A stretch of DNA of 64,000 bases from Planctomycetota bacterium (GTDB lineage Bacteria > Planctomycetota > UBA8108 > UBA1146), in the NCBI GenBank assembly GCA_965661685.1, contig CBFIET010000175.1, forward strand, positions 20,160 to 84,159, written 5' to 3'. Below the pieces are notes generated by a model. That model ran no database searches. It was not told the DNA's origin and worked only from the letters and a program-made list of their open reading frames with translations. Positions 1 through 60,673 of this stretch are shown here, one piece after another; positions within the stretch are counted from its first letter, which is position 1, and every line of letters begins with the position of its first letter. A program made the position numbers and the translations under genes.

Positions 1-1130
1 ACGTGTGCTCCCTCGCCAGCCCAGGCTTCCTGCTGGACATCCCCCCCGGAAACCACCTCGACGATGGGAAGATCGAATCGCCTGGCAAAGTCCCAGTCGC
101 GCTGGTCGTGACCGGGGACGCACATGATGGCTCCGGTTCCGTATCCCATCAGCACGTAGTCGGCGACCCAGATCGGCATCGACTCGCCGTTGCATGGATT
201 TTTCGCATGAGCACCGGTGAACACGCCGGTCTTCCCCGCATCGGAACCGGACCGCTCGATGTCACTCTTCCTCGCCGCCTCCTGGCAGTACTCGGTGACC
301 GCATCGCGATGTTCATCGTCGACCAGTTCCATGCACAGGGGATGCTCGGGAGACAGAACACAGAATGTAGCTCCGAACAGGGTGTCCGGCCTGGTCGTGA
401 AGATCTCGATCTCGTGATCCGAGTCCTCCACCGCGAAAGTTGCGTCCGCTCCCTCCGATCGTCCGATGCGATCTCGCTGCATCGACTTGATCGATTCGGG
501 AAAATCGACCTCGTCGAGTCCTTCGAGTAACCGGTCTGCGTATGCGGTGATCCGGAGCATCCACTGCTTCATCGGCTGACGCACCACCGCATGGCCGCCA
601 CGCTCACTCTTTCCGTCGATCACCTCGTCATTGGCAAGCACCGTCCCCAGTTCGGGGCACCAGTTGACCATCGCTTCTTCCTGGTAGGCGAGATCCTTCT
701 CCAGCAGCTTCAAGAAGATCCACTGGGTCCAGTGGAAGTATGATGGCTCACAGGTAGAAAACTCACGATCCCAGTCGTAGGAGTATCCCATGGCACGCAA
801 CTGCTTGCTGAAGGTCTCGATGTTCTGGCGGATCGAAACTTCCGGATGTACACCCTGCTCGATGGCGTACTGCTCCGCCGGCAAACCGAAGGCATCAAAG
901 CCCATCGGGTGCAACACATCGAAGCCCTTCATCCGGCGATGGCGTGCGACGATGTCCGTTGCGGTATAGCCTTCGGTATGTCCGACATGGAGACCACTTC
1001 CCGAGGGGTAGGGGAACATGTCGAGAACATAGTACTTGGGCCTATCGGCTCTTTCTCCAGCACGGAACAAACGATGCTGCTCCCAGTGCTGTTGCCATCT
1101 GGATTCGATTTCTTGAGGTCTGTACGCCAT
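1..1130 (-). CDS. leuS: Leucyl-tRNA synthetase, N-terminal ~376 aa. The gene continues beyond the left edge of the window.
   Basis: Not in the ORF track because it runs off the edge. Minus-strand translation from the ATG at 1130..1128 reads [22 protein letters not shown]...[19 protein letters not shown] (HIGH motif) ...[18 protein letters not shown]. It is colinear with E. coli LeuS. The listed ORF 3..530 (+) is antisense to it. Confidence 0.9.
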
Positions 1131-1272
1131 CTACTCCACCTGGCTACGGTCTCGGGTTATGCTGACTCGACTACAATGTGAGTGAGTCTGTTGCCCGGAT
1201 TCTAAGCAACTCCTCGCCATTCGACCACCATGCCTGGAGATTTTGACAACCAGGATCTGAAGGAAAATACAC

Positions 1273-2262
1273 ATGCTGCGCAACATCGCCATGCTTGCAT
1301 CACTTCTGGTCGTGATACCCGGATGCTTGACCCCTGACGAACGAAGTACCGCAACCCGGGACACCTGGGCCATCGCCATCCATGGTGGAGCCGGTGCCAT
1401 CTCCGAGGACGCACCCGCTGAGATCCGCAACGCCTATCTCGAATCCCTTCGATCCGCTCTCACCATCGGCTCCGGAATCTTGCAGAGTGGTGGCTCCGGC
1501 CTCGATGCCGTGGAGCAGGTAATTCGCTACCTCGAGGACGATCCTCTCTTCAATGCCGGGCACGGAGCAGTCTTCAATTCCAAGGGGAATCATGAGCTGG
1601 ACGCATCCATCATGGATGGATCCGATCTTTCCTGCGGTGCTGTTGCGGGAGTTCGAACGGTGCGACACCCCATCACCCTGGCCAGAAAGGTGATGACAGA
1701 CACTCGCCACGTGCTCTTTGCAGGAGAGGGAGCCGAGACCTTTGCGAGTCAGAGCGGTGTCGAGCTGGTCGAGAACTCCTTCTTCTCCACCGATCGCCGT
1801 CGGCAGCAGTGGATCAAGAAGACCCAGCAGAAGAAGGGGACGGTCGGAGTGGCAGTGCTCGATCGCCACGGCCACCTGGCGGCGGGTACCTCTACCGGCG
1901 GCATGACTGACAAGCGCTGGGGACGAGTTGGCGACTCCCCCATCGTCGGAGCCGGTACCTACGCGGATGATCGTGCCTGCGCAGTCTCCTGCACAGGCAC
2001 CGGCGAGGAGTACATTCGACACGCCGTCGCTCATTCCGTCGCCGCTCGCATGATGCTGGCGGGCCAGGATCTACAATCTGCCTGCGATGCGTTGATTCAT
2101 CAGGTACTGCAACCCGATGACGGTGGACTCATCGCCGTCGACCGGTCGGGAAACATCGCGTTTTCCTACAGCACAGGAGGAATGTATCGTGCCGCCGCCA
2201 ATTCGAGCGGACGCTTCGAGGTTGGCATCCATGATGAAATGATGGGAGATCCTGGCTCCTAG
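1273..2262 (+). CDS. iaaA: Plant-type (Ntn-hydrolase) isoaspartyl peptidase / L-asparaginase, predicted lipoprotein
   Basis: 329 aa. Signal peptide with lipobox (LLVVIPGC). Ntn autoprocessing and nucleophile motif KGTVGVAVLD, also GAGTYADD and AVSCTGTGEEYIR, all typical of IaaA / asparaginase 2. Confidence 0.85.
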   Translation: MLRNIAMLASLLVVIPGCLTPDERSTATRDTWAIAIHGGAGAISEDAPAEIRNAYLESLRSALTIGSGILQSGGSGLDAVEQVIRYLEDDPLFNAGHGAVFNSKGNHELDASIMDGSDLSCGAVAGVRTVRHPITLARKVMTDTRHVLFAGEGAETFASQSGVELVENSFFSTDRRRQQWIKKTQQKKGTVGVAVLDRHGHLAAGTSTGGMTDKRWGRVGDSPIVGAGTYADDRACAVSCTGTGEEYIRHAVAHSVAARMMLAGQDLQSACDALIHQVLQPDDGGLIAVDRSGNIAFSYSTGGMYRAAANSSGRFEVGIHDEMMGDPGS

Positions 2263-2362
2263 TTTTCCGCAGCGGTTCTGGAATGGTCGTCAGGATTCCA
2301 TCGATCTCCACTTGCGATGAAGTGAACTCTAAAATCGGCTGTCGTCTCCTTGGTTGAGAGCC
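2259..2362 (-). pseudogene. Relic 3-prime end of a cyanophycinase (S51) gene; only the C-terminal ~33 codons remain
   Basis: Minus-strand frame reads ...HRLSTKETTADFRVHFIASGDRWNPDDHSRTAAEN*. This parallels the C-terminus of the intact S51 gene at 3758..4588 (KETTADFRIHLIGSGQSWKTT...). It contains the 32-nt repeat at 2322..2353. There is no upstream coding continuation. Confidence 0.45.
2322..2353. repeat. 32-nt direct repeat, copy A (gtgaactctaaaatcggctgtcgtctccttgg)
   Basis: Matches 3821..3852 at 31 of 32 positions in the same orientation. Flanks are diverged. Confidence 0.8.
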
Positions 2363-2590
2363 GGTGCCCTCATGTGAGAGATGATCATTGCTGCAGGTGC
2401 TTTGGCATTGACGGCTTGGAGTCCCTGCGCATGCTTCTATAGTAGAGTGTTGCCGTCGGAGTCGCAGGGCCGATTCGCTGCCACCGCCCGACCAAGAATT
2501 GCACGATCAAGAATTGTACAGACTCGAAACGTCAACTCCGTCAGATATGGAGGCCGCAGCATGCGACGCCTTCAAGTAGGGATACATCCC

Positions 2591-3688
2591 ATGAAGCATC
2601 TCAGCTTGGGCTTCTTGATACTTCTCTTCGCAACCTCCTGCGCCGGCCCGCCCGTCGCAGAGCTCTCACACCCTGAGTCCAGCCAACTCTTCGACTTGCT
2701 CGACACCGGTCGGGATGGCTCCCTCTCCCCCTTCGAGGCGCTCGACGCCCTGCTCGTGATCTCGGAGGAGGGCCCCTTGACCCGCGAGACTCTCGGAGCT
2801 TTTTTGAGCGAGTACGCTGAAGAGGAGTTCGCCGACCGCAGGGACTTCTTCGAGATGGGGGACTCGGACGGCGACGGGAGGCTGCTGCTGGACGATCTCC
2901 CCAGTGGATCTACCTCCATGATGTCGAGCCTGGACACCGACGGTGACGGTGCCCTCAGTTGGAGCGAGTTCAGGCTGGCCAATATCGAGACCTCCGAACT
3001 GATGGCGAGAGGTGAGGGAGCGGAGCTCTATGCCGAGCTCGTCGAGGAGATCGGGGAGCCAGTGCGGCTGGAAGGAGCTCCCCTTGACCTCGTCGAGGAG
3101 CTGCGGGAGTTGGATCTCGACGGAAACGGGATCGTCACTCAAGAAGAGACCGTGCAGTTGATCCGTGAGGAGATCGCTGGGGCGACCTTCGAGGTCACAG
3201 GCGAGCTCGCTTTCATGCAAGGAGTGATCGGTGCAACTACTCCTTCGAGTGTGCTTGAGCTCGCTTTCATGAACCCTGAGGTTCGGACCATTGTCCTCAC
3301 CAATATGCCAGGTTCGATGGACGACGTGGCCAACATGCGGGCCGGACGATACATCCGGCAGCTTGGCCTGAACACGCACGTACCGGCGGATAGCGAAGTG
3401 GCCTCTGGCGCAACCGACCTGTTTCTAGCCGGTAGGCATCGCTCCTGTGAGCCGGGCGCACGCTTCGGCATCCACTCTTGGGGTGGAGGTCCTGTGGTAG
3501 CCACGGACCTGCCAAGAGATCATGAAGATCACCTCCTCTACCTGGACTACTACGAGGAGATGGGCATCCCTGCGGAGTTCTACTGGCGAACTCTCTCGGC
3601 GGCCCCAGCTGAGGACATCCACTGGATGACGGAGGAGGAGCTCGAGCGCTTTGGTTTCTTCACGGACGAGAGGCCTGACCTGAAGTAA
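2591..3688 (+). CDS. Secreted lipoprotein with three to four EF-hand Ca-binding loops and a C-terminal domain with possible ClpP/crotonase-like fold
   Basis: Start chosen at MKHLSLGFLILLFATSC (lipobox) rather than the track ORF start 2381. EF-hand loops: DTGRDGSLSPFE, DSDGDGRLLLDD, DTDGDGALSWSE, DLDGNGIVTQEE. The C-terminal segment LTNMPGSMDDVANMRAGRYIRQLG...ASGATDLFLAG resembles the ClpP/SppA fold (low confidence). Confidence 0.7.
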   Translation: MKHLSLGFLILLFATSCAGPPVAELSHPESSQLFDLLDTGRDGSLSPFEALDALLVISEEGPLTRETLGAFLSEYAEEEFADRRDFFEMGDSDGDGRLLLDDLPSGSTSMMSSLDTDGDGALSWSEFRLANIETSELMARGEGAELYAELVEEIGEPVRLEGAPLDLVEELRELDLDGNGIVTQEETVQLIREEIAGATFEVTGELAFMQGVIGATTPSSVLELAFMNPEVRTIVLTNMPGSMDDVANMRAGRYIRQLGLNTHVPADSEVASGATDLFLAGRHRSCEPGARFGIHSWGGGPVVATDLPRDHEDHLLYLDYYEEMGIPAEFYWRTLSAAPAEDIHWMTEEELERFGFFTDERPDLK

Positions 3689-3757
3689 GGCTCCGAGCGG
3701 GGTCGGAGGTTTGCCTCAGAGTTCACATACGAGGCTTGTTGGAGCTTGATCCCATCA

Positions 3758-4588
3758 TTAGTGGTCTCGAACAGAGGACGCAAGCGGAGTCGTTTTCCAG
3801 GACTGGCCGCTACCGATCAGGTGAATTCTAAAATCGGCTGTCGTCTCCTTGGCGGATGATTCCGTCTTTGACTTGCGACCATCGATCACCACCACCGGCC
3901 CCCGGCCGATCACTTGCCAGGAACCATCGGGATCGACGATGACGGCGGTCTGCTCATCGATGCCGACTCCGATCTGATCTGGATGATCGGCGACGGCGGT
4001 GAAGAGGCGCGCCCAGCGCCTTCTGGCGAGGAAATGCTGATCGACGATGACACCGGGCCACAGCCCCAGTCCCTCGACCAGTTCCGTGGTCGATTTGAGC
4101 AACGCCTCCAGTTCTGCCTTGCCGGTGATCATGTGGCGAGACATCACCGCAGCACCGGCGCTGGTTCCGGCAACGATCGTCCCGGCGGCGTGGCTTTTTC
4201 TCATCACCTCGATGAGGCCTCGCTGACGGAACGCCTCCATCAATCGGCTCTGGTCACCACCGACCAGCCAGATCAGGTCTGCCTTCTCCACGGCGATTCG
4301 TGCCGCCTCTGCGTCCTCGGGGATGATCGATACCTGCTCTGCTCCCGATTCGATCCATGCATCTCTGGTCGAAGAGCCGGCATTTTCTCGGGCTGAAGCC
4401 CACGGAACGATGAGGATTCTGGCATCACTTCCCCCCGCCATCTGCAGGGCACGGGGACGAAGGTCTGGCGGAATCGACCCCCCTCCTGCGACGATGAGGA
4501 CTCCTGCGGTGGTAGTTGAAGGAACTGGCTCTTCATGGGGATGCAGGGAAAGAGTAGTGACAAGAATCGACATCATGATCATCTTCAT
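3758..4588 (-). CDS. cphB: Cyanophycinase (peptidase S51, CphB/CphE-like), secreted
   Basis: Start at MKMIMMSILVTTLSL with a GGAGG RBS 5 nt upstream. GTSAGAAVMS serine motif, VIVDQHFLARRRW, IGVGIDEQTAVIVDP...VVVIDGR and C-terminal FRIHLIGSG are all colinear with Synechocystis CphB. An N-terminal signal peptide suggests an extracellular (CphE-type) enzyme. Confidence 0.8.
   Translation of the reverse strand: MKMIMMSILVTTLSLHPHEEPVPSTTTAGVLIVAGGGSIPPDLRPRALQMAGGSDARILIVPWASARENAGSSTRDAWIESGAEQVSIIPEDAEAARIAVEKADLIWLVGGDQSRLMEAFRQRGLIEVMRKSHAAGTIVAGTSAGAAVMSRHMITGKAELEALLKSTTELVEGLGLWPGVIVDQHFLARRRWARLFTAVADHPDQIGVGIDEQTAVIVDPDGSWQVIGRGPVVVIDGRKSKTESSAKETTADFRIHLIGSGQSWKTTPLASSVRDH
3821..3852. 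repeat. 32-nt direct repeat, copy B (gtgaattctaaaatcggctgtcgtctccttgg)
   Basis: Lies inside the 3-prime coding end of the cyanophycinase gene, encoding ...KETTADFRIH... on the minus strand. Confidence 0.8.
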
Positions 4589-4678
4589 CGGGACCTCCAA
4601 GGCGGTATTCTCACCCGTTGACTCACTCCTGTCAGCAGGAGACCTTCATTCAGACCGATGAAGATCAACGGAGGCTCC

Positions 4679-5428
4679 ATGTCGAGAAATATCATCTTTC
4701 TTCTCTCTTCGACGCTGCTACTCCTGACCTGCTGTTCCGGCCCCATCCCGAGGACCGCCATCGCTCAACCGAGTCAGGAGACGCGGGCAGCAGCGGCGGG
4801 CTGGCACGGAGGTCGTCCGTGGATCGATCAACACCTCGACGGAGTGAAGATCGCTGCAGAAGGATCACTCGATCTGATGCTGCTGGGAGATTCCATCACC
4901 CAGTCGTGGGGAGGACCCGGTCGCCAGGTCGGCTCCGCAGCCGCTGCTGTGTTCGAGAAGTGGTTTGGACAGCTGAAGGTAGGAAACCTGGGAATCTCCG
5001 GAGATCGCACCCAGCATCTTCTGTGGCGCATCGAGAATGGCACCCTGCAAGGAGCCGATCCTGCGGTGATCGTCATCCTGATCGGAACCAATAACATCAC
5101 CCATGATCCGCCCGCGCAGATCGCGCAGGGCATCGAGGCAGTGGTACACGCCACCCGACGAGCGGCACCCACTGCCAAGATCCTCCTGCATCCCGTCTTT
5201 CCCCGTGGAAAGACCCCCGAGGATCGTGGCCGCCAGGATGTCGAGGAGACCAATAAACGGATCCAGCAGCTGGCTCGGCTCGACAACCTCGAGATCATCG
5301 ACATGACGGCAGTTTTCCTGGACGCCGACGGCAGCGCCCGCACCGACCTCTACAGGGGAGATTTTCTGCACCTGTCCACCGCAGGATACGAGGCGTGGGC
5401 TGCCGCTCTTGCTCCGCATCTGCAATAA
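4679..5428 (+). CDS. SGNH/GDSL-family hydrolase (lipase/esterase), secreted
   Basis: Start at MSRNIIFLLSSTLLLLTCC with GGAGG 5 nt upstream. The GDSL block is LLGDSITQSWGG. GTNN appears in block III and a DxxH-like motif at the C-terminus. Confidence 0.8.
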   Translation: MSRNIIFLLSSTLLLLTCCSGPIPRTAIAQPSQETRAAAAGWHGGRPWIDQHLDGVKIAAEGSLDLMLLGDSITQSWGGPGRQVGSAAAAVFEKWFGQLKVGNLGISGDRTQHLLWRIENGTLQGADPAVIVILIGTNNITHDPPAQIAQGIEAVVHATRRAAPTAKILLHPVFPRGKTPEDRGRQDVEETNKRIQQLARLDNLEIIDMTAVFLDADGSARTDLYRGDFLHLSTAGYEAWAAALAPHLQ

Positions 5429-5476: not shown

Positions 5477-5516
5477 ATAACGCCCCCTCCGGATCGTTCC
5501 GGGGGGGGCGTTATTG
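5477..5516. terminator. Bidirectional rho-independent terminator between convergent genes
   Basis: AATAACGCCCCCTCCGGA-tcgt-TCCGGGGGGGGCGTTATT. This is an 18-bp GC-rich stem with one mismatch and a 4-nt loop, with an A-run on the left and a T-rich run on the right. Confidence 0.8.
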
Positions 5517-5534
5517 AATCAAGCCAGCTGTGGG

Positions 5535-6608
5535 TTAGAGCGGTTGTGGCTCGGGACGAGGCTCGGGACGGGGATTATCTCCTCCGCGTCCTCCACGGCC
5601 ATCGGGACGAGGACGGGGAGGTCTGTCACCACCCTGACCACCACCCTGGCCACCACCGGGCTGAGGTCCAACCTCTTCTCCACCACCACGGCCTCCGCGA
5701 CCACCACCACGTCTACGACGCGGCTGATCGCCACCCTCGCCACCACCGGGCTGGGGTCCGATCTCTTCTCCACCACCACGGCCTCCACGTCTGCGGCGTG
5801 GCTGGTCGCCATCCTGGCCACCACGACCTCGTCGACCCTGGCTCATCTCTTCACGATCGATGATTCCATCTCCGTTGCGATCGAGTGGGCCAAGACGGCG
5901 GCGAAGCCCTTCCGGCAACCCTTCCATCTCTTCACGATCGATGACTCCGTCACCGTTCGGATCGAGTCGTCCGAGTCCGCCACGACCACGCTCAGGAGGT
6001 CCATTCCCATCTCCTGGAGGAGGTCCTCCTTCCGGTGCCGGGCGACGGCGATTCAGCCCCTCGAGCTCTTCCGGAGAGATCACTCCATCGCCATTGCGAT
6101 CGAGTCGACGGCGCATTCCTTCCGGAATGCCCTCGATCTCTTCCTTGTCGATGATTCCATCGCCATTGCGATCAAATCGATCGATCAATCCGCCTCCGCG
6201 ACGACGGTCGGGAGCAGGATTATCTCCTCCCTCTCCACCGGGTTGCGGCCGATTACCACCGCGTCCGAGAACGCCATCGAGTTCTTCTCCAGAGATGATT
6301 CCATCTCCGTTGGTATCAGCACCACCCAGTCGACGGCGCATACTCTCGGGGAGTCCTTCCAGTTCTTCCTTGTCGAGAACCCCATCACCGTTGCGATCGA
6401 GGCGATCGATCAGACTGGAACCACCACGACCACGGCGCCGTGGCGCGGGAGGTGTCGGAGCAGGAGCAGGATCATCGCCTGGAGTAACATCCGGGGGCGT
6501 AGGATGGTCCTCACCGGGAGTAGGGCGAGGTGAGGGAGTGGGTTGAGGATCCTGTGCCAGAACGATGGCTGGCATCAAGATCACCAGGAACAGGGAGAGA
6601 AGACGCAT
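5535..6608 (-). CDS. Secreted repetitive EF-hand-like calcium-binding protein rich in Pro and Gly
   Basis: Start MRLLSLFLVILMPAIVLAQD, with a GGAGG RBS. At least six tandem units of DRNGDG(V/I)(I/L)DxEE(L/M/I)EG(L/I)PExhRRRL are separated by Gly/Pro/Arg-rich linkers. The long plus-strand ORFs across this region are antisense artefacts of the repeats. Confidence 0.75.
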   Translation of the reverse strand: MRLLSLFLVILMPAIVLAQDPQPTPSPRPTPGEDHPTPPDVTPGDDPAPAPTPPAPRRRGRGGSSLIDRLDRNGDGVLDKEELEGLPESMRRRLGGADTNGDGIISGEELDGVLGRGGNRPQPGGEGGDNPAPDRRRGGGLIDRFDRNGDGIIDKEEIEGIPEGMRRRLDRNGDGVISPEELEGLNRRRPAPEGGPPPGDGNGPPERGRGGLGRLDPNGDGVIDREEMEGLPEGLRRRLGPLDRNGDGIIDREEMSQGRRGRGGQDGDQPRRRRGGRGGGEEIGPQPGGGEGGDQPRRRRGGGRGGRGGGEEVGPQPGGGQGGGQGGDRPPRPRPDGRGGRGGDNPRPEPRPEPQPL

Positions 6609-6803
6609 TGTGACCTCCACAAATCGGGGAGTTGATTCAAATGAAACGACTGCAAAAGTCTCCCGATTTCTGATCGCTAATCAGAGCGGATGAGAGATTC
6701 GCCGCCAATGAAGTACTATACACGATCAACCCCGCTCCCCCCTAGTAGTTGCATGCAACCCTGAAAACCCGTGGATTGCAGCAGGATGGACGATTACCGG
6801 CAG

Positions 6804-7793
6804 TTACTGACGGGGTTCTCGGGGCGCCACTTCACAGTCAGCCCATTCGAAGAGAGCCGCCGTCGTCGCCCGGGTCACCGCCGCGAGAAACTCGAAGTCG
6901 ATGGTCTCGATGGTATCGCTGCTGCGATGGTAATGAGGATTTCGAAAATTGGCGGTATCGGTCAACATGATGCCTCTCAATCCCGCCTGCCAGTAAGGGT
7001 AGTGATCGCTCCTGGCCGCATCACCAAAGAAGCCGGCAATCCTGTTGGCGCTGAAGTACTTCAGTTCCGGGACATGTCGATCGGCGCTTCCCTCGAAGAG
7101 ATTTCCGAGTCCACCGGAGCGCATATTTCCGGCGACCAGGATGAAATCTCCAACGTGCGGTATCGAAGCGATGATGGGAATCCTGATCGGAGCATCCTGA
7201 CTATCATCCTCGAAACTCCGGTACCCGATCATCTCCAGATCCAGAATTCCATCGACCTTACGGTCGGGGTCAGCAAGGATGTGCTGAACGTGAGCCTCGC
7301 TGCCGACGAGACCAACCTCTTCCGCAGCGAAGAAACACAATCGGATGGTCCGTTCAGGACGCTGGGCCTGCATCACCCTGGCGATCTCCAGCAATCCCAC
7401 CACACCGGATCCGTTGTCGTCAGCCCCTGGACAATTTCTGACCGAATCGAAGTGCGCGCCTACCTCCACCACGGTGGATCGATCCCGTTGTCCCTCGATC
7501 TCGACGATCAGGTTGAACTGCTCCACACCACGCCATGGTCCCACCGGCTCGCGGATCACCTCGTATCCCATTCCCTGTAGTTGTTCCTCGAGGTAGTTGA
7601 TCGCTCGCACCGTTTGCTGCTGATCTCCGGCATATCTCGGTCCCAGTTCCAGCAACGATTTCAGCTGCTGTTCACAACTACTCGCAGAGATCTCAACGAT
7701 GATCGAATCGATCGCCTCGCGGGTGACAGGAGAGACTGTACAGCCACAGAGAAGCAACAGGCTGAGGACGAATACTCTCGGGCCAGTTCTCAT
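6804..7793 (-). CDS. M28-family zinc aminopeptidase, lipoprotein
   Basis: Start MRTGPRVFVLSLLLLCGC. HFDSV...PGADDNGSGVVGLLEIARV is the M28 metal-binding signature. Its ATG overlaps the folA stop (ATGA). Confidence 0.8.
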   Translation of the reverse strand: MRTGPRVFVLSLLLLCGCTVSPVTREAIDSIIVEISASSCEQQLKSLLELGPRYAGDQQQTVRAINYLEEQLQGMGYEVIREPVGPWRGVEQFNLIVEIEGQRDRSTVVEVGAHFDSVRNCPGADDNGSGVVGLLEIARVMQAQRPERTIRLCFFAAEEVGLVGSEAHVQHILADPDRKVDGILDLEMIGYRSFEDDSQDAPIRIPIIASIPHVGDFILVAGNMRSGGLGNLFEGSADRHVPELKYFSANRIAGFFGDAARSDHYPYWQAGLRGIMLTDTANFRNPHYHRSSDTIETIDFEFLAAVTRATTAALFEWADCEVAPREPRQ

Positions 7794-8290
7794 CGATCGA
7801 TCCCAGCCCGTCTCTCCAGCACCTTGAACACGCAACGGTGGGGATTCTTTTCGTCTGGCGCTCTTTCCTCGCTGGAGATGACCTGCCACTCGAGAGGATC
7901 GAGGGGAGGGAAGAACGTATCTCCTTCAAAATCTCCATCCACCTCGGTGAGGTGACAACGAGTCGCTTCTGACTGGAAGAGAAGATAGATCTCGGCACCA
8001 CCGATGATGAAGATCTCCTCCTCGTTGGCACAAGCCTTCAGCGCATCACTGGATGATCCGAAGCCTTCCACTCCATCCGGCAACATCTCCGGTGTGCGTG
8101 TCAGTACCAGATTACGGCGACCCGGGAGTGGCTTTCCGATGGAATAAAATGTGCGTCGGCCCATGACGATGGGGGAGCCCATCGTTGTTTTCTTGAAGTG
8201 CATCAGGTCCGCAGGAAGATGCCAGGGGATCGTGCCCTGCCGTCCGATGACTCCTCCGGTACCCACAGCAACGATCAGCGTCACTCGCAT
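7790..8290 (-). CDS. folA: Dihydrofolate reductase
   Basis: MRVTLIVAVGTGGVIGRQGTIPWHLPADLMHFKKTTMG...IGGAEIY. This is the classic DHFR N-terminus. The gene sits 1 nt downstream of the thyA stop. Confidence 0.9.
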   Translation of the reverse strand: MRVTLIVAVGTGGVIGRQGTIPWHLPADLMHFKKTTMGSPIVMGRRTFYSIGKPLPGRRNLVLTRTPEMLPDGVEGFGSSSDALKACANEEEIFIIGGAEIYLLFQSEATRCHLTEVDGDFEGDTFFPPLDPLEWQVISSEERAPDEKNPHRCVFKVLERRAGIDR

Positions 8291-12579: not shown

Positions 12580-15500
12580 ATGACCCCTGCATTTCTGATC
12601 CCCATCCTCCTTTCCGCTCACATGATGCAATCCGACCCACCCGATCTCGTTCCTGGAAAACAGATCCCCCAGTGGGAAGTCCTTCACTACCAGAAGGATG
12701 GTGAGAAGCAGCAGGCGACAGTGCATTACCAGATGTTTCTTCCATCCTTCTTCGAGAAGGGTGAACCGTTACCCCTGATGTTGTTTCTTCACGGAGCAGG
12801 GGAACGCGGCAAGGATCTCGATGATGTCAAGAAGTGGGGACCTCCTCGATTTCTCGCCGATCGCCCTGATTTTCCATTCATCGTCGTTTCACCCCAGTGC
12901 CCCCGAGGGCAGTGGTGGGATATCGAAGTACTCGTCGCGCTGCTCGATAAGTTGGAGAGTACCTTCGCCATCGATCCCGACGCGATCGTGGTGACCGGAC
13001 TGAGCATGGGTGGCTACGGAGCCTGGAGCCTGGCGGCGGCGCAACCCGATCGATTTGCCGCCATCGCTCCCATCTGCGGAGGAGGCGATCCGGCCACTGC
13101 TGGACGGTTGGTCGATCTTCCCATCTGGAACTTTCACGGATCCGATGATCGTGTCGTTCCTGAGCGGAAGTCCCTCGATATCGTCGAGGCGATCCGCGCT
13201 GCCGGCGGGACCCGGATCAAGCACACATCCTACGCGGGGGTCGCCCACGAGTCGTGGCGGATCGCCTACCAATCGGATGCGCTGTGGAGGTGGCTCCTCG
13301 CCCAGCGAAGGGGCTCCGATGCGGAGCCGATGGTGTCGGAACAGCGACTCGCCGAGGCGGGAACCAATCGACCGCAGATGGAGAGGGCCCTCAGCAGCGG
13401 ATCGGCGGATCAGCGCAAGGCGATGCGGTGGCTCGTCGAGCAGATGCCAGTCACCGACCTCCAGCTCCTCGACAGCGAGTTCCTCATCGAGAACGTGAAT
13501 CTGGCGGTGAAATCGAGAGATTCCTCGCCGTGGGATCTCGAGATCCCCGAGGAGATCTTCCTCGATGGGGTCCTTCCCTATGCCAGCATCAACGAGAGGC
13601 GCGATCGCTGGAGAGCGGATTTCCGCAACAGGTTTCTACCCCTGATAGAGGATACCGACTCCCCCTCGGAGGCGGCAGCCAGGTTGAATCAAAAGGTGTT
13701 TGGCCTGGTCGGCGTGAAGTACTCGACGAAACGTCCCAAGGCGGATCAGAGTCCCTACGAATCGATGGAATCGGGTCTCGCTTCCTGCACCGGTCTGTCG
13801 GTGATTCTGGTCGACGCCTGTCGGTCGGTCGGGATCCCCGCCAGATTCGTCGGGACTCCGCTGTGGTCCGATGGCTCGGGCAATCACTCGTGGGTAGAGA
13901 TCTGGGATGACGGCTGGCACTTCACCGGCGCTGCAGAGCCGACGGGAGACGAACTGAACCGTGCATGGTTCACGGGCCGGGCGTCGGGGGCTTCCCGTGA
14001 AGATCCTCGCAACGCCGTCTATGCCGTGACCTGGAACGACTCCCCCATCACCTTTCCGATGATATGGGCACCAAACAACTCAACGGTCGGTGCCACCGAT
14101 GTGACGGACCGCTACGCCACCCCACCGGAGCCTGCGAAGGACGTCAGTGCAGCGGTTCGATTCCGTATCACCGAGGGGAAGGAAGGGGCGCGTTGTGTCG
14201 CCACGATCCGGGTACTCGGTGGCGGCGGGGAGGTTCTCTTCGAGGGTGAGAGTCGGGATGAGAGTTTTGATGCCAATGATCATGTCACCGCCGAGTTGAA
14301 GGCCGATCAGAAGGTGATCGTCGTCGCTCAGAACGAAACCTCGAGTCTGGTGGTATCGATCCAGGTGAACAAGGGTGAGCAACTGGTCGAACTCGACCTG
14401 ACTCCGCGCTCTTCTGAAGATCACTCCGCAGAAGTGATCGCATCACTGGGGGCGATCTATTCCATCTGTGGTGCCGAGGTCGATCTGGAGCAGTTTCCCA
14501 TCAGTTCGGTGCCGCTGACGAAGATCGATGCTCAGGTTGCGGCTTCGATGGTCTGGCACTCCCACGCCAGCGTCATCGCCAGCGGTCGCATCGAGGAGAT
14601 GACCAGTCGTGTACTCACCCTGGGCGAGCTGAAGATGCCATTCTGGTACGAGGTGAAGGGTCCTGCTCCACAGAAGGGACGAAGCCTGTGGATCTCGATG
14701 CACGGTGGAGGAGGTGCGCCCGCCGAGGTCAACGATCAGCAGTGGGACAATCAGAAGCGACTCTACCGCCCGGAAGAGGGGGTCTACCTCGCTCCTCGGG
14801 CACCGACCAACAGCTGGAACATGTGGCACCAGGGGCACATCGATCAGTTCTTTGACCGACTGATCGAGAACCTCATCGTTTTCGAGGGTGTCGATCCTGA
14901 CCGCGTTTACATCCTGGGTTACTCGGCGGGAGGAGATGGAACCTATCAGATCGGTCCCCGCATGGCGGACCGTTGGGGTGCCGTCGCAATGATGGCGGGG
15001 CATCCAAACGATGCTCGCCCAGACAGTCTCCGCAACACTCCGTTCACCCTGCACATGGGAGGCAAGGACGAACCTTACAACCGCAACGGTCAGGCAGTGA
15101 TCTGGCAAGAAAAACTCCACAAGTTGCAGGAAGAGGATCCGGCCGGTTACCCCCACTGGGTCAAGATCTACCCCGACAAGGGGCACTGGATGGATCGCGA
15201 GGATCGAGCCGCCATTCCATGGATGGCGAAGAACTCACGCAATCTGCGACCAAGTCGAGTCGTCTGGCAACAAGACGACGTGACCACCAAACGTTTCTAC
15301 TGGCTCCAAGATGACGAACCGGTCGGTAGAAGTCGAATCGTCGCCGAGATCGACGGTCAGAAGATCAACATCGTCGAAGCTCCTGCCGGGACTCGACTCA
15401 CCCTTCGTCTCGACGATTCGATGATCGACCTCGATGCACCGATCATCGTCGAGCATGGAGACCGCGTACTCTTTGAAGGATCGATCGATCGGACCATCTC

Positions 15501-15597
15501 GACGATTGCCCGGACGATGGGGGAACGGGGGGATCCGGTCGGGATCTTCCATGCCGAGATCACCGTCGAGTTTCCGTCGAAGGAAACCTCGCAGTAG
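12580..15597 (+). CDS. Large secreted multidomain protein: N-terminal alpha/beta-hydrolase esterase, central transglutaminase-like cysteine-protease core, C-terminal second alpha/beta-hydrolase esterase
   Basis: N-terminal domain LMLFLHGAGERG...GLSMGGYGAWSL...FHGSDD. Central domain GLASCTGLSVILVDACRSVGIPARFVG...GNHSWVEIWDDGWHF (Cys/His of the transglutaminase-like fold). C-terminal domain LWISMHGGGG...ILGYSAGGDG...AMMAGHPND. Confidence 0.75.
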   Translation: MTPAFLIPILLSAHMMQSDPPDLVPGKQIPQWEVLHYQKDGEKQQATVHYQMFLPSFFEKGEPLPLMLFLHGAGERGKDLDDVKKWGPPRFLADRPDFPFIVVSPQCPRGQWWDIEVLVALLDKLESTFAIDPDAIVVTGLSMGGYGAWSLAAAQPDRFAAIAPICGGGDPATAGRLVDLPIWNFHGSDDRVVPERKSLDIVEAIRAAGGTRIKHTSYAGVAHESWRIAYQSDALWRWLLAQRRGSDAEPMVSEQRLAEAGTNRPQMERALSSGSADQRKAMRWLVEQMPVTDLQLLDSEFLIENVNLAVKSRDSSPWDLEIPEEIFLDGVLPYASINERRDRWRADFRNRFLPLIEDTDSPSEAAARLNQKVFGLVGVKYSTKRPKADQSPYESMESGLASCTGLSVILVDACRSVGIPARFVGTPLWSDGSGNHSWVEIWDDGWHFTGAAEPTGDELNRAWFTGRASGASREDPRNAVYAVTWNDSPITFPMIWAPNNSTVGATDVTDRYATPPEPAKDVSAAVRFRITEGKEGARCVATIRVLGGGGEVLFEGESRDESFDANDHVTAELKADQKVIVVAQNETSSLVVSIQVNKGEQLVELDLTPRSSEDHSAEVIASLGAIYSICGAEVDLEQFPISSVPLTKIDAQVAASMVWHSHASVIASGRIEEMTSRVLTLGELKMPFWYEVKGPAPQKGRSLWISMHGGGGAPAEVNDQQWDNQKRLYRPEEGVYLAPRAPTNSWNMWHQGHIDQFFDRLIENLIVFEGVDPDRVYILGYSAGGDGTYQIGPRMADRWGAVAMMAGHPNDARPDSLRNTPFTLHMGGKDEPYNRNGQAVIWQEKLHKLQEEDPAGYPHWVKIYPDKGHWMDREDRAAIPWMAKNSRNLRPSRVVWQQDDVTTKRFYWLQDDEPVGRSRIVAEIDGQKINIVEAPAGTRLTLRLDDSMIDLDAPIIVEHGDRVLFEGSIDRTISTIARTMGERGDPVGIFHAEITVEFPSKETSQ

Positions 15598-32964: not shown

Positions 32965-34353
32965 GTGGACCTGGAAAGGTTTGGAGGAGAGATGGAAGAT
33001 GTCATCAAGCGGCTCGCTGGAAGCCGGCAGGAGCACATCGATAGACTGATTGATTGGCTGAAGATTCCAAGCATTTCGACCGATAGCCACAGAACAGATG
33101 AAGTCCGCAGGGCAGCATCCTGGATCGAGGAGGAACTGACCAGTGCTGGTTTCGAGGCTCGAATCGACGAAACCGATGGCCACCCGGTCTGTTTCGCCTC
33201 CTGGACCGGCGCCCCGGGGGCCCCGACGGTACTGATCTACGGGCACTATGACGTGCAACCGCCCGAACCGCTGGAACTGTGGCGACATGGAGCCTTCGAA
33301 CCAACGCTTGAAGGGGACGACCTCATCGCGCGAGGAGCCACCGACGACAAGGGACAGGTTCTGGCCCTGGTGAGGGGGATCGGAGGAGCACTTCAGGAGA
33401 GAGGGTCCCTGCCGGTAAATGTGAAGTTTCTCATCGAGGGAGAAGAGGAGATCGGATCGCCAAACCTGGCTCCATATATCGAGAGACACAAGGAGGAGTT
33501 GACCGCAGATGTTGCAGTGATCTCCGACTGCTCTCAGTTCGCTCCGGGAATTCCAGCCATCACCGTTGCTCTCAAGGGTCTCGTCTACCTGGAGATTCAT
33601 CTTCAGGGTCCGAATCGTGACCTTCATTCCGGGTCGTTCGGTGGTTCGGTGGAAAATCCAGCAAACGCCCTGACGAGAATCCTCGGATCGCTCCGGGATG
33701 AAGAGGGGCGCATCACCATCCCGGGTTTCTACGACACCGTTCGAGACCTGACACCTGCGGAGAGAAGCGATTTCGCCGCCCTCCCCTTCGACGAGGTCGG
33801 ATTCACGAAAGATCTCGGAGTGCCCCACGTCCACGGCGAACAGGGCTGGACGACGCTGGAGAGAAAAGGCGCCCGACCGACACTCGATATCAACGGATTA
33901 CTGAGCGGGTGGACGGGAGAGGGAGCCAAGACGGTACTCCCCGCCCATGCCAGTGCCAAACTCTCGATGCGACTGGTCCCTGACCAGGATCCACTGGAGA
34001 TCGAGAAGCTGGTTTCCGACCACCTTCGATCTCTCTGTCCCTCCAGTTGCACCATCGAGGTGAGTACTCACCACGGAGCGGAACCGGTCCTGGTGGAACG
34101 TGACAGTCCCTGGCTGGAAGCGGCAGCACGCGCGGTGGAAAAGGGATTCGGTAAATCGCCGGTGTATATCCGCGAAGGTGGATCGATCCCGGTGGTCAGC
34201 GATCTCAAGAGGATTCTCGACATCGATACCATCCTGCTCGGTCTCGGGTTGCCAGATGACAACGCACATTCTCCCAATGAGAAGTTCAACATGCCCGACT
34301 ACCAGCGAGGTATTGAAACTGCTGCCTGGCTACTCGAGGAGATCTCCAGGTGA
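32965..34353 (+). CDS. M20-family dipeptidase (ArgE/DapE/PepV-like)
   Basis: VLIYGHYDVQPPEP...ARGATDDKGQV...FLIEGEEEIGS. M20 metal-binding blocks plus a dimerisation domain. Confidence 0.85.
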   Translation: MDLERFGGEMEDVIKRLAGSRQEHIDRLIDWLKIPSISTDSHRTDEVRRAASWIEEELTSAGFEARIDETDGHPVCFASWTGAPGAPTVLIYGHYDVQPPEPLELWRHGAFEPTLEGDDLIARGATDDKGQVLALVRGIGGALQERGSLPVNVKFLIEGEEEIGSPNLAPYIERHKEELTADVAVISDCSQFAPGIPAITVALKGLVYLEIHLQGPNRDLHSGSFGGSVENPANALTRILGSLRDEEGRITIPGFYDTVRDLTPAERSDFAALPFDEVGFTKDLGVPHVHGEQGWTTLERKGARPTLDINGLLSGWTGEGAKTVLPAHASAKLSMRLVPDQDPLEIEKLVSDHLRSLCPSSCTIEVSTHHGAEPVLVERDSPWLEAAARAVEKGFGKSPVYIREGGSIPVVSDLKRILDIDTILLGLGLPDDNAHSPNEKFNMPDYQRGIETAAWLLEEISR

Positions 34354-40196: not shown

Positions 40197-41582
40197 TCAC
40201 TGTCCCGCAGCTTGTTCGTCACTCGCAGTAGTTCGTATCCAGCGAAGCGCCGCTTGCAGGGCTGGATCGCCCTCCTCGCGAATTCGATCCGGATCGACCA
40301 GAATGATCTCGTCAGGCACCACACCATCGCCCTCGAGTACCCTGCCAGACATCGAACGGTATCCGGCGATGGCATACTGCAGCAGATCCCCACAGGGTAG
40401 GCTCTCTATCATGGATGGCAATGCTGCTCCGGCAGTTGTTCTTCCGAATAATCGCGCCCTCTGCAGGTCCTGGAGACCCTGGGCGAAGATCTCCGCCGTC
40501 GATGCGCTTCCTTCGTCGATCAGTACCGCAACAGGCTTCTTCCACGGGTCGAGTCGCGGATTCACCACGAAGTGCATGTCATGATCACGCAACTTCATCA
40601 CACCCAGTTCCAGGTTTTCTGTTTCCAGGAGCCAACCGGCGATCCCGCAAGCCATCAGCCCCAGGCCACCTGGATTGCCACGGAGGTCGATGATCAAACC
40701 GCGGGCATCTCGGTTCTTCTGGAGGCCTTTCTGGAACCAGGGCATCAGGTATTGAGGACCGAGAAAGATGTTGAAGTGCATGTACAGCACCTCGTCATCG
40801 ATCAATCGATCCTCCAGAACCAGGGGAACTGGCCCGAGATGGCCAAGCTTGACCGGCTGCCCTTTTCCAACTGGTACCACCAGGGGGATTTCTATCTGGC
40901 GAACTTTTCCATGCTCATCTTCAACCGAGTAGGTTCGAGTCTCGCCGGCACTGCCCAGCATCGCCGAGGCGAGTCCTTGTACAGGAAGGTAACGGTTTCC
41001 CACTTCCAACCACGTCTCGATGAGAGGACCCAGTTGCCTTTCTCCCACCGAATGAACGATTTCTCCGGGAAGTAATCCCGCCCCCTGTGCGGGGCTACCT
41101 TCCTTGACCTTGACCACCACGGCACGGCCATCGCCGACTCGAAGGATTGCACCTGTCTCCGCATCTCCCCCATCACCGACACCAGCCGCTGCATTGCGCG
41201 GGAAGATTCCGAAGTGAGAGAGTTCCAGACCTCGCAACAGGCCACGCAACGCCCTGCGCGCATCCCGCACCGTGGATGCTGCCTCCATCGTCTGTCTCCA
41301 GTGGATTTTCGCTTCTTCCCACTCTTCCCCGAGCTCCTCCGGCTCCCAGTAGGTGCTGTCAATTTTCTCACAGACCTGGTCGAAGGACTGAAGGTACAGA
41401 TCCATCTGATCCTGGCTGAGAAGCGGGGAGCGCTTCTCCATACCTCCACAGCCACCGATGAAGATGACTGCGAGCAAGAGCAGCAGGCGAGCCTCGAGCT
41501 TGGTGTGTAACAAGTGTTCCGCTCCTTCCGAGAACTCAATTTGCGGGTCTGGATTGTAGGGTGTCCGATAGGCAAATCCCAT
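40197..41582 (-). CDS. S41-family C-terminal-processing (tail-specific) peptidase with PDZ domain
   Basis: PDZ VKVKEGSPAQGAGLLPGEIVHSVG. S41 core LIIDLRGNPGGLGLMACGIAG. Start uncertain: the ATG at 41582, or a TTG near 41522 giving MLHTKLEARLLLLLAVIFIGGC, a lipoprotein signal. Confidence 0.75.
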   Translation of the reverse strand: MGFAYRTPYNPDPQIEFSEGAEHLLHTKLEARLLLLLAVIFIGGCGGMEKRSPLLSQDQMDLYLQSFDQVCEKIDSTYWEPEELGEEWEEAKIHWRQTMEAASTVRDARRALRGLLRGLELSHFGIFPRNAAAGVGDGGDAETGAILRVGDGRAVVVKVKEGSPAQGAGLLPGEIVHSVGERQLGPLIETWLEVGNRYLPVQGLASAMLGSAGETRTYSVEDEHGKVRQIEIPLVVPVGKGQPVKLGHLGPVPLVLEDRLIDDEVLYMHFNIFLGPQYLMPWFQKGLQKNRDARGLIIDLRGNPGGLGLMACGIAGWLLETENLELGVMKLRDHDMHFVVNPRLDPWKKPVAVLIDEGSASTAEIFAQGLQDLQRARLFGRTTAGAALPSMIESLPCGDLLQYAIAGYRSMSGRVLEGDGVVPDEIILVDPDRIREEGDPALQAALRWIRTTASDEQAAGQ

Positions 41583-41706
41583 CGATCTCCCGGCACCCAC
41601 ATGACAGATCTCAAGGCTCCTGTGATTGCAAACCAGCGAAGTTGGCTCCATCATTCGTTTTTTGGAGGCCCCATGTAGGGGACAGCGATCAGAAAGTCGA
41701 GAGAGC

Positions 41707-42474
41707 ATGGCCAGCAAGATCTCCATCGAAGTCTGCATCGACGACCCAGGCTTCGCCGTCGAGGTTGCTGAAGCAGGGGCGCAGCGCATCGAGATGTGCA
41801 GTGCACTCGATGTCGGCGGCCTCACCCCGACAAGATCGGCCCTCGAACGATGCCAACGCTCCGGGATTCCGGTCACCGCCATGACACGGATCCGTCCTGG
41901 AGATTTCATCCTCGATGAAAACGACATCGCCTGGATGCGCGATGAAATCGCCTCCCATGTCGAGGCGGGGGTGCAGGGGATCGTTCTCGGCGCGCTGACT
42001 GCAGAGGGAGAGATCGATACCGGCGCACTACGCTGGCTGATGGATGGTTGTAATGGACTCCCCGTGACCTTCCATCGCGCTTTCGATCACTGCAACGACC
42101 TGCAGCGAGGACTGGAGCAGATCATCGATAGCGGTTGCCAGCGATTGCTCACTTCCGGGGGTGCCCCCACCGTCCACGATGGCATCGAGGAACTGATTCG
42201 CATCAACGAGGCTGCGGGAGATCGAATCGAGATCATCGCAGGAGGCGGCGTGAGAGCAGAGGAAGTGAAGAATCTCGTTTCCCGCAGTGGGATCAGTTGG
42301 GTTCATCTGAGCGGACGAAGTAGTTCCAGTGGCGGTCAAGACTCCACAGCCACCTCCCGGAAAAGTGACCAGATCCCGCTTGGCCGCCTCGAGTCAGGGG
42401 GCTCCAGGGCGAGATTCAGCACCGATCCCTCCATCATCCGGCGGGTCAGAGCAGTTCTTGACGGTGAGGAATGA
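41707..42474 (+). CDS. cutC: Copper homeostasis protein CutC family
   Basis: MASKISIEVCIDDPGFAVEVAEAGAQRIEMC...PVTFHRAFDHCNDL...RLLTSGG. Colinear with E. coli CutC. Confidence 0.85.
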   Translation: MASKISIEVCIDDPGFAVEVAEAGAQRIEMCSALDVGGLTPTRSALERCQRSGIPVTAMTRIRPGDFILDENDIAWMRDEIASHVEAGVQGIVLGALTAEGEIDTGALRWLMDGCNGLPVTFHRAFDHCNDLQRGLEQIIDSGCQRLLTSGGAPTVHDGIEELIRINEAAGDRIEIIAGGGVRAEEVKNLVSRSGISWVHLSGRSSSSGGQDSTATSRKSDQIPLGRLESGGSRARFSTDPSIIRRVRAVLDGEE

Positions 42475-59279: not shown

Positions 59280-59446
59280 TCAGGACCGGAAGTATCAGAA
59301 TATAGACCCCTCAAGTGTACTGCCTCGATTGCCACCCGTGAACCGAGGTCGACCCATCGGGTCTGCTATCGTGGCCACGGCTCAAGCGTTATCCTCGTCC
59401 CCTCTTCGATCAATCGACACCTGAATAGATGTTTTGGAGGACACCG

Positions 59447-60673
59447 ATGGCAGACAGCAAGCACCCCTGGGAAACACCGATGCCCGATGATCAGTTCTCC
59501 CGCATGCAAGAGATCCTCTCCGCTCCCAGTCCCATCGGACTGGAAGCTGCGATGACCGAGGGTGTTCTGGCTCCGATGCTGGAAGAGTTCATCCCGGAAG
59601 GCTGGAAGATTCATCGTTTCCGGGGAAATGCTGGAATCGTTCTCGACACGATGCCCGATGCTCCCGAAGGAACTCTCACCGTCATGGCCATCGGTCATGC
59701 AGACAAGATCCGCATGCAGGTTCGAAGCATCGGCGAAGATGGCAAGATATGGATCAATAGCGATTCCTTCCTCCCCACGACATTGATCGGCCACGAGGTC
59801 ACCCTCTTCTCCGAGAATCCCGAGAAGCCCGGTGAGTACCGAAGTATCTCCGGTGGAACGGTTGAAGCACTTGGCGCGATTCACTTTGCCGAGCCTCCGC
59901 TTCGAGACGGTTCCAAGGGCATCAAGCCAAACCAGCTCTACCTCGAGTTACAGCTGAGTGGAGACGAGCGAAAGAAACAGGTCGAGGCACTTGGAATCCG
60001 CGCAGGAGATCCCTTGCTCCTCGATCGCCCCATCCGCCGAGGATTCGGTCCCGATAGTTTTGTCGGCGCCTATCTCGACAACGGACTGGGTTGTTTCGTG
60101 GTCGAGGAAGCCGCACGCATCATCGCTGGCGGCGATTCACTGAAGAATGTCCGCTACCTCGGTGCATTTGCTGCATACGAGGAGATCGGTCGATTTGGAA
60201 GTCGGGTGATGGCGGGAGTGATGAAGCCGGATGTCATCATCGGTGTCGATGTAAACCACGACTACGAAGCGGCACCGGGGATCGGAGACCGCCGATATGC
60301 TCCACTCAAGATGGGGCAGGGGATGACACTGGCTGTCGGTGCCATCGTCACTGCCGGTCTCAATGTGATCATTCAGGACTCATGCCAGGCAAACGACATC
60401 CCTTATCAGGTCGATGTCTGCGGCCGCGATACCGGCACCGATGCCATGGCAGGGGTTCTTGCCAGCGTCGACTCTGCAGCAACCAGCATCGGGTTCCCGA
60501 TACGTAACATGCATACAATTTCAGAGAGCGCTCACACCGGAGATGTCATCGCCGCAGTTCATGCGCTGGTCGCAACCTTGAGACGAATGGATGAGCAGGG
60601 AACTACTACAGCAGATCTATGTGGCGCACATCCACGCCTGGATGAAATTGAGTCTCTCTCCCACGGAGAGTGA
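59447..60673 (+). CDS. M42-family (FrvX/YsdC-like) glutamyl/tetrahedral aminopeptidase
   Basis: MADSKHPWE...MAIGHADKI, YLDNGLGCFVV, DVNHDYE. Colinear with M42 peptidases. Confidence 0.8.
   Translation: MADSKHPWETPMPDDQFSRMQEILSAPSPIGLEAAMTEGVLAPMLEEFIPEGWKIHRFRGNAGIVLDTMPDAPEGTLTVMAIGHADKIRMQVRSIGEDGKIWINSDSFLPTTLIGHEVTLFSENPEKPGEYRSISGGTVEALGAIHFAEPPLRDGSKGIKPNQLYLELQLSGDERKKQVEALGIRAGDPLLLDRPIRRGFGPDSFVGAYLDNGLGCFVVEEAARIIAGGDSLKNVRYLGAFAAYEEIGRFGSRVMAGVMKPDVIIGVDVNHDYEAAPGIGDRRYAPLKMGQGMTLAVGAIVTAGLNVIIQDSCQANDIPYQVDVCGRDTGTDAMAGVLASVDSAATSIGFPIRNMHTISESAHTGDVIAAVHALVATLRRMDEQGTTTADLCGAHPRLDEIESLSHGE

Follow-up and report, generated by a model that had tools for sequence, protein, structure and literature searches.

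Known cyanophycin-degrading systems and the locus under study

In 30 of the 32 complete genomes that were found to encode a cyanophycinase and an IaaA-type isoaspartyl dipeptidase and to lack cphA1, these genes are clustered, often together with transporters, and the clusters have been read as serving cyanophycin scavenging (Sharon & Schmeing 2023, PMC10206079); for strain L21-Spi-D4, the same paper cites a previously described "cyanophycin utilization locus". Cyanophycinases with Sec signals, encoded by metagenome-assembled genomes (MAGs) of sediment Acidobacteriota without cphA, have likewise been read as evidence of scavenging (Flieder et al., PMC8528874), and a planctomycete species description already mentions cyanophycinase genes. 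We analysed a stretch of 64,000 nucleotides from a Planctomycetota bacterium (contig CBFIET010000175.1, positions 20,160 to 84,159), called here the window, which carries a cyanophycinase gene of peptidase family S51 and, facing it, the gene of an isoaspartyl peptidase of the Asparaginase_2 family (the IaaA-like protein). Comparison of the two proteins and of their neighbourhoods with known and related loci makes it fairly probable that the pair is a two-enzyme system for the extracytoplasmic degradation of exogenous cyanophycin in an uncultured marine planctomycete.

The pattern itself is already published, and the window pair adds a case from marine Planctomycetota. As in the published scavenging clusters of genomes lacking cphA1, where the cyanophycinase and isoaspartyl dipeptidase genes (iaaA or iadA) are at most 5 kb apart, no cphA is nearby and environmental use of cyanophycin is the published reading (PMC10206079), the two genes of the window are close to each other (1.5 kb). 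The pair differs from those clusters by mild peculiarities: it has no transporter in its vicinity, its genes converge instead of forming an operon, and the dipeptidase, too, is a predicted export product, namely a lipoprotein. The literature searched contained no description of a cyanophycinase paired with an IaaA that is exported or a lipoprotein. The case for scavenging by Ca. Sulfomarinibacter (PMC8528874) uses evidence of the same kind as ours, namely a signal peptide on the cyanophycinase, the absence of a synthetase, in our case from the 64-kb window, and the presence of an isoaspartyl dipeptidase in the genome; that organism belongs to another phylum, and its description mentions neither gene adjacency nor an exported dipeptidase. 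In the stated model of cyanophycin use, beta-Asp-Arg is imported and then hydrolysed inside the cell (PMC9974463). The same source shows that CphZ, an enzyme of the M14 family, also hydrolyses beta-Asp-Arg, so that the claim of an initial annotation of this DNA that only enzymes of the IaaA and IadA types do so is outdated.

The pair and the elements between its two genes are the following:

1273..2262, plus strand: IaaA/EcAIII-type isoaspartyl peptidase/L-asparaginase of 329 amino acids (PF01112), predicted lipoprotein
2259..2351, minus strand: remnant of a former S51 3' end, seen by tblastn, translation and blastn
2561..3688, plus strand: inserted gene for an EF-hand/ClpP-fold lipoprotein of 375 amino acids, with EF-hand Pfam matches
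3758..4588, minus strand: CphB-type cyanophycinase (S51) of 276 amino acids and 29.5 kDa (TIGR02069, PF03575)

Both open reading frames (ORFs) were where the initial annotation had put them, and the profile scores given below agree with the families it had named. It had also rightly described the two genes as facing each other. What it had omitted is the gap of 1,495 bp between these window ORFs, with the 375-residue gene and the S51 relic inside it.

The S51 protein has the features of a CphB-type cyanophycinase

The S51 protein matched Peptidase_S51 of Pfam (PF03575) with 91 bits and the NCBI cyanophycinase equivalog TIGR02069 with 181.4 bits, above the cutoff of 126.6. Its best solved relatives were the Synechocystis CphB structures 3EN0 (E = 2e-33; a full-length phmmer alignment of 119 bits) and 7UQW (1.5e-32), followed by a second cyanophycinase, 7UQV. 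The alignment with 3EN0 placed Ser143, His185 and Glu212 on the CphB triad S132, H174 and E201. All six residues of the CphB pocket (Q101, D172, Q173, R178, R180 and R183) were kept, as Gln113, Asp183, Gln184, Arg189, Arg191 and Arg194; according to Law et al. 2009 (quoted in PMC3235067), these residues are critical for cyanophycinase activity. The triad and the pocket were invariant in 16 aligned homologues, down to 42% identity. From this homology we infer that the S51 protein cleaves cyanophycin into beta-Asp-Arg. The alternative TTG start of its gene at 4600 had no backing from orthologues.

The initial annotation had named dipeptidase E specificity as an alternative for this protein. The PepE model NF003642 gave 40.8 bits against a cutoff of 156 while the cyanophycinase pocket was intact, and we rejected a dipeptidase E identity on these profile and residue data.

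The designation "CphB/CphE-like" holds for its first half. With CphB of Synechocystis PCC 6803 (3EN0, 7UQW), which is intracellular, the window protein shares a single S51 domain of about 27 to 29 kDa, the triad and an identical pocket; it differs from CphB by a hydrophobic N-terminal export segment of about 20 residues and by the absence of linkage to cphA. With CphE of Pseudomonas anguilliseptica and P. alcaligenes (PMC3235067) it shares the serine-type mechanism, the triad Glu and the predicted character of an exported cyanophycinase of a heterotroph, directed at external cyanophycin. However, CphE has about 420 amino acids, a mass of 43 to 45 kDa, a Sec signal of 24 amino acids and a Thr in the place of CphB Gln173. 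Because the window protein has 276 amino acids (29.5 kDa) and Gln184 at the position of CphB Gln173, we rejected orthology with CphE; judged from its sequence, it consists of a core of the CphB type that is extended at the N-terminus.

The IaaA-like protein is a member of the IaaA/EcAIII family

The IaaA-like protein matched the Asparaginase_2 profile (PF01112) with 349.6 bits and almost end to end, from position 1 to position 306 of 309. Its best solved relative was EcAIII (2ZAK; 250 bits, 2.5e-73), while glycosylasparaginase gave 133 bits (1e-37) and taspase 90 bits, and these two identities for the N-terminal nucleophile (Ntn) hydrolase were rejected on score. The self-cleavage site between Gly189 and Thr190 was intact (1837-1842), and the beta-subunit chains of the Protein Data Bank (PDB) entries aligned to the protein from residue 190 onward. 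Residues N94, T190, R218, D221, T241 and G242 corresponded to N67, T179, R207, D210, T230 and G231 of EcAIII. The Ntn fold, the autoprocessing between Gly and Thr, the nucleophile and the substrate-binding residues are thus those of EcAIII/IaaA of E. coli (2ZAK, 1K2X) and of the isoaspartyl aminopeptidase 8DQM from a cyanophycin cluster; in contrast, EcAIII and the cphA-linked IaaAs are without the lipoprotein signal that the window protein carries.

The score against the NCBIfam equivalog of the E. coli beta-aspartyl-peptidase (NF007589) was 278.6 bits, below the cutoff of 567, and because this cutoff was missed the protein is, on its profile scores, a member of the family and not a strict one-to-one equivalog of E. 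coli IaaA. We infer that it hydrolyses beta-Asp-Arg with Thr190 as the nucleophile.

Both proteins are predicted to be exported

The N-terminus of the IaaA-like protein reads MLRNIAMLASLLVVIPGC, a signal (1273-1326) with a lipobox-like VIPGC that ends at Cys18. A hydrophobic stretch followed by Cys was kept in all 10 of the S51-paired IaaA orthologues (for example LISGC, LLCGC, VLGC and SLGC), with about 15 to 20 linker residues between the Cys and the first conserved strand. The IaaAs of the cphA operons on Deinococcus and Legionella plasmids had no such lipoprotein-like N-terminus and started directly at the first conserved strand. This pattern predicts a membrane-anchored lipoprotein rather than a freely secreted dipeptidase.

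The N-terminus of the S51 protein is about 20 residues longer than that of CphB and has a hydrophobic core, MIMMSILVTTLSL, whose best 11-residue Kyte-Doolittle mean is 2.21; the export segment is assigned to residues 1-15 (4544-4588). A similar segment was present in 112 of the 120 best S51 homologues, some of them with clear AXA sites or lipoboxes. Whether the segment of the window protein is cleaved or serves as an anchor, the catalytic domains of both enzymes are predicted to be outside the cytoplasm. The initial annotation had assigned signal peptides to both proteins and had called them secreted. Comparison with relatives supports the export signals; since these signals indicate the crossing of the cytoplasmic membrane only, "secreted" or "extracellular" was an overstatement, most of all for a dipeptidase predicted to be lipid-anchored.

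Pairs in which the cyanophycinase and the IaaA both have export signals were also found in two other loci (L008 and L079), whereas in L058 and L094 an exported cyanophycinase adjoins an apparently cytoplasmic IaaA.

Export signals on cyanophycinases are associated with the absence of adjacent cphA

The window was searched by tblastn with CphA1 of Deinococcus and Ruegeria and CphA2-like proteins of Ruegeria and Legionella, all from annotated plasmid records, and with IadA of E. coli K-12. None of them gave a match at E<=1e-3 across the 64 kb, and Pfam scans of the 44 ORFs of at least 200 amino acids, which are all the apparent genes of that size in the window, revealed no Mur-ligase or ATP-grasp protein. 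The initial annotation had seen no cphA in the window either, and this observation stood. In the annotated flanks of 12 related loci no cphA1, cphA2 or iadA was found beside the pair, and no amino-acid or dipeptide transporter adjoined the pair in these relatives.

We then scored 80 metagenomic cyanophycinase loci (L019-L098), 72 of which were assessable, for a hydrophobic N-terminal segment on the cyanophycinase and for an adjacent cphA. An adjacent cphA was absent from 53 of the 55 loci whose cyanophycinase has the segment and present in 13 of the 17 loci whose cyanophycinase is without it. The association was significant by Fisher's test (p = 3e-9), a value which overstates independence, as the loci are mutually related and the test ignores phylogeny, and which to that extent tells against our reading. 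The association held when only loci with both flanks of at least 1.5 kb were counted (18 without and 0 with cphA when the segment is present, 2 without and 10 with cphA when it is not). The two exceptions with the segment, L019 and L022, have a signal-type cyanophycinase beside a convergent cphA-like gene. By its sequence, the window enzyme would belong to the class of exported cyanophycinases that are not linked to cphA, and the preference of the initial annotation for scavenging of exogenous cyanophycin over storage is supported in its core by this anticorrelation. As a rule for the annotation of MAGs, we suggest that the export status of the cyanophycinase separates scavengers from storers.

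The two genes are paired in related loci

The source has its close relatives among marine Planctomycetota MAGs (UBA1146, NAT2 and SI037S4_bin26, for example); a search of genome contigs with a single protein returned only nine close relatives, too few for broad statistics. Both genes were present and convergent in 12 of 12 distinct related loci, with S51 identities of 51 to 79%. They abutted directly or were split only by the same inserted gene as in the window (L010 and L011), and in the relatives without the insert the two genes are tail to tail with 3' ends that overlap by 4 bp. The relic at 2259-2351 shows that the pair was once contiguous in the window genome too.

The pair was also found where the neighbourhood is not shared. 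In L008, whose S51 and IaaA proteins are 51% and 67% identical to those of the window, the convergent pair is located among enoyl-CoA hydratase genes, an entirely different neighbourhood, and in L005 and L006 it is retained though the flanks have changed. The same pairing occurs on plasmids of Deinococcus, Legionella and Rhizobium, there with cphA. No Asparaginase_2 neighbour was found in L007 and L009, whose S51 proteins are 46% identical to that of the window. The description of the pairing as a known functional unit in the initial annotation agrees with the 12 related loci and with the published scavenging clusters (PMC10206079).

Proposed pathway and alternative explanations

In the pathway that we propose, the S51 protein would be exported by means of its hydrophobic N-terminal segment, and Ser143, His185 and Glu212, together with the CphB-type pocket of Gln, Asp and Arg residues, would cut cyanophycin to beta-Asp-Arg dipeptides. 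The IaaA-like protein would be exported and lipid-anchored at Cys18, and self-cleavage between Gly189 and Thr190 would yield two subunits, one of about 18 kDa and one of about 14 kDa. With Thr190 as the nucleophile, the enzyme would then hydrolyse beta-Asp-Arg at the membrane surface and release Asp and Arg as free amino acids. The free amino acids would then be imported by putative transporters encoded elsewhere.

A stronger form of this proposal is that the breakdown is finished wholly outside the cytoplasm, the exported CphB-type enzyme cutting the polymer or fragments of it and the lipid-anchored IaaA immediately splitting beta-Asp-Arg on the same side of the membrane, and that import is limited to free Asp and Arg, which would make a dipeptide transporter unnecessary. 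We advance it as a tentative idea about which we are more doubtful than convinced. The arrangement in which both enzymes are exported was found independently in L008 and L079, and such a breakdown might be coupled to the uptake of the polymer into the enlarged planctomycete periplasm. A dipeptidase that is predicted to be exported departs slightly from the accepted scheme of import followed by hydrolysis, and nothing here overturns current understanding. If the pair does act on cyanophycin, pelagic marine Planctomycetota would join the heterotrophs apparently equipped to use cyanophycin from cyanobacterial necromass as a nitrogen-rich resource.

Several observations weigh against the degradation of external cyanophycin by this pair. 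The S51 segment is short and weak in positive charge, shows no clear AXA cleavage site, and could be an uncleaved membrane anchor. Cyanophycin is large and poorly soluble, and it would have to pass the outer membrane to reach an enzyme that is only periplasmic. Pfam scans revealed no amino-acid or dipeptide transporter and no Arg or Asp catabolic gene in the window. Signal-like N-termini were present in 90 of the 97 assessable top IaaA homologues, which makes exported IaaA-like proteins widespread, also where no S51 gene occurs; one exported homologue with 61% identity (P0306) has no S51 gene nearby. An adjacent Asparaginase_2 gene was seen in only 3 of the 72 assessable metagenomic cyanophycinase loci, which are more distant, so that most exported cyanophycinase-like genes are without a dipeptidase neighbour. 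The IaaA enzymes are promiscuous even in cyanophycin clusters (PMC10206079). The last three points, together with the abundance of exported peptidases in the window (M28, S9/transglutaminase, M20, S41 and M42), would also fit a general periplasmic pair for the scavenging of nitrogen and peptides, in which the IaaA-like enzyme acts on isoaspartyl dipeptides of aged proteins or on asparagine and the S51 enzyme on some other Asp-containing oligomer or polymer. We regard this explanation as unlikely. The S51 protein retains all the residues that are reportedly critical to a cyanophycinase, the three Arg of the pocket among them, and its score clearly exceeds the curated cyanophycinase cutoff and is far below that of PepE. 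The clade of the window S51 protein is not known to have another substrate.

Conserved gene order offers another explanation, in which the two genes have independent functions and are neighbours only through synteny within one planctomycete family. The block of leuS, thyA, folA and the M28 and SGNH genes is syntenic in the close family, with leuS, thyA and folA being housekeeping genes, and much of the adjacency of the pair in this family could be plain synteny; family adjacency alone is weak evidence for a joint function because of this. Convergent genes cannot be co-transcribed and form separate transcripts, an unrelated gene was inserted between the two without apparent harm, and distant homologues of each occur alone. 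The evidence for pairing becomes stronger than synteny alone because the neighbourhood differs in L008 and the flanks have changed in L005 and L006. The recurrence of the pairing on the Deinococcus, Legionella and Rhizobium plasmids and in the 30 of 32 genomes without cphA, and the duplication of the S51 3' end by the insertion, which preserved both reading frames, also speak against independent functions, and we find that explanation improbable. A third possibility, to which we give very little credence, is that the organism degrades its own intracellular store and that cphA is elsewhere in its genome. It could draw on the two signal-type loci among 55 that have an adjacent cphA-like gene (L019 and L022). 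Against it stand the export signals of both proteins, which cphA-linked homologues lack, the absence of cphA from the 64-kb window and from beside the pair in any of the 12 related loci, and the clustering of co-occurring cphA1 and cyanophycinase genes in 81% of genomes (PMC10206079). Degradation of exogenous cyanophycin outside the cytoplasm is the reading that we retain for the pair.

The inserted gene and how it reached the locus

The product of the gene between the pair has a lipoprotein-type N-terminus with a FATSC lipobox (Cys27) and three clear EF-hand loops, at residues 101, 125 and 185. Its C-terminal domain had no Pfam match. The AlphaFold2 (AF2) model, with a predicted local distance difference test score (pLDDT) of 88 and a predicted TM-score (pTM) of 0.81, matched ClpP in Foldseek with a probability of 1.0 and a target-normalised TM-score (TMt) of about 0.57. 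Ser282 and His305, which are invariant in the family, were aligned by hhalign with Ser97 and His122 of E. coli ClpP, a statistically weak match (E = 0.1) that serves only to show residue correspondence. The family is rare: a collection of 5.8 billion sequences contained 74 of its proteins, and the homologues P0183-P0191 are without the EF-hand half. The protein may be an exported serine peptidase that depends on calcium and belongs to an undescribed family.

We rejected this gene as a third component of the pathway, as the closest relative (L002) does not have it and its homologues occur in unrelated gene contexts. It is present in L010 and L011. We treat it as a passenger that is not demonstrably part of the cyanophycin pathway.

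The relic directly follows the stop of the IaaA gene and is made of 93 bp, or 30 codons, of an S51 C-terminus, which reads KETTADFRVHFIASGDRWNPDDHSRTAAEN and then a stop. This stop and that of the IaaA gene share the palindrome CTAG (2259-2262), the same overlap as in the relatives without the insert. The stretch 2322-2353 is a direct repeat, with 31 of 32 positions identical, of 3821-3852 inside the live S51 gene, and a tblastn search with S51 residues 245-265 matched 2357-2295. The repeat shared by the relic and the live gene shows that the S51 3' end was duplicated by the insertion, which disrupted neither reading frame.

Comparison with the relatives by sliding-window identity and blastn delimited one further feature:

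2100..4200: recombinant block of the IaaA gene 3' end, the inserted gene and the S51 3' half

The window and L002, which has no insert, were 83 to 99% identical over positions 1-2100 and from about 4200 onward, whereas between about 2100 and 4200 their identity fell to 64 to 78%. Over this same interval the window was 80 to 99% identical to L011, and likewise to L010 up to about 4050. From this mosaic we conclude that homologous recombination has carried the insert across lineages and that the breakpoints are within the two enzyme genes that flank it. A chimeric assembly is an unlikely cause of the mosaic, as two independent Logan assemblies (L001 and L107) exactly reproduced the products of the Asparaginase_2 gene, the inserted gene and the S51 gene, spanning both junctions. 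The proteins P0003, P0007 and P0010 have the same kind of shared C-terminal half as the block. The history that we propose starts from an ancestral tail-to-tail pair with overlapping stops; the unrelated lipoprotein gene would have entered the 3' end of the S51 gene, and recombination would afterwards have spread it.

Other genes of the window

The genes that flank the pair are the following:

start near 1135, continuing off the window edge, minus strand: leuS, at the left end of the window
4658..5428, plus strand: SGNH/GDSL hydrolase with a signal-like N-terminus (PF13472, 111 bits)
5535..6620, minus strand: repetitive EF-hand protein of 361 amino acids
6804..7889, minus strand: M28 peptidase, with folA and thyA beyond

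The SGNH hydrolase gene is divergent from the S51 gene and adjoins it in 10 of the 12 related pair loci, down to an S51 identity of 57%; this synteny was listed for L002, L004, L005 and L010-L015. L008 is without this neighbour, and the short contigs L006 and L016 were not assessable. A scan of positions 1000-4800 for promoters and terminators gave counts no higher than in shuffled sequence.

The protein encoded at 5535-6620 is exported and has many EF-hand loops separated by repeats rich in Pro, Gly and Arg, with weak matches to the XopAW and lanmodulin models; an ORF of 339 amino acids antisense to its gene (5514-6533) looks like a compositional artefact. The contig of L013 (QNYK01000050.1), titled "Bacillota bacterium MAG 7", carries the planctomycete block of M28, EF-hand, SGNH, S51 and IaaA genes at 66 to 92% protein identity and is probably mis-binned. 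The window is dense in peptidases, with the M28 gene at 6804-7889, a fusion of 1005 amino acids between an alpha/beta-hydrolase (S9/DLH) and a transglutaminase at 12580-15597, and M20, S41 and M42 members at 32965-34353, 40197-41927 and 59429-60673. Several proteins of the FG-GAP/ASPIC type are also encoded in the window.

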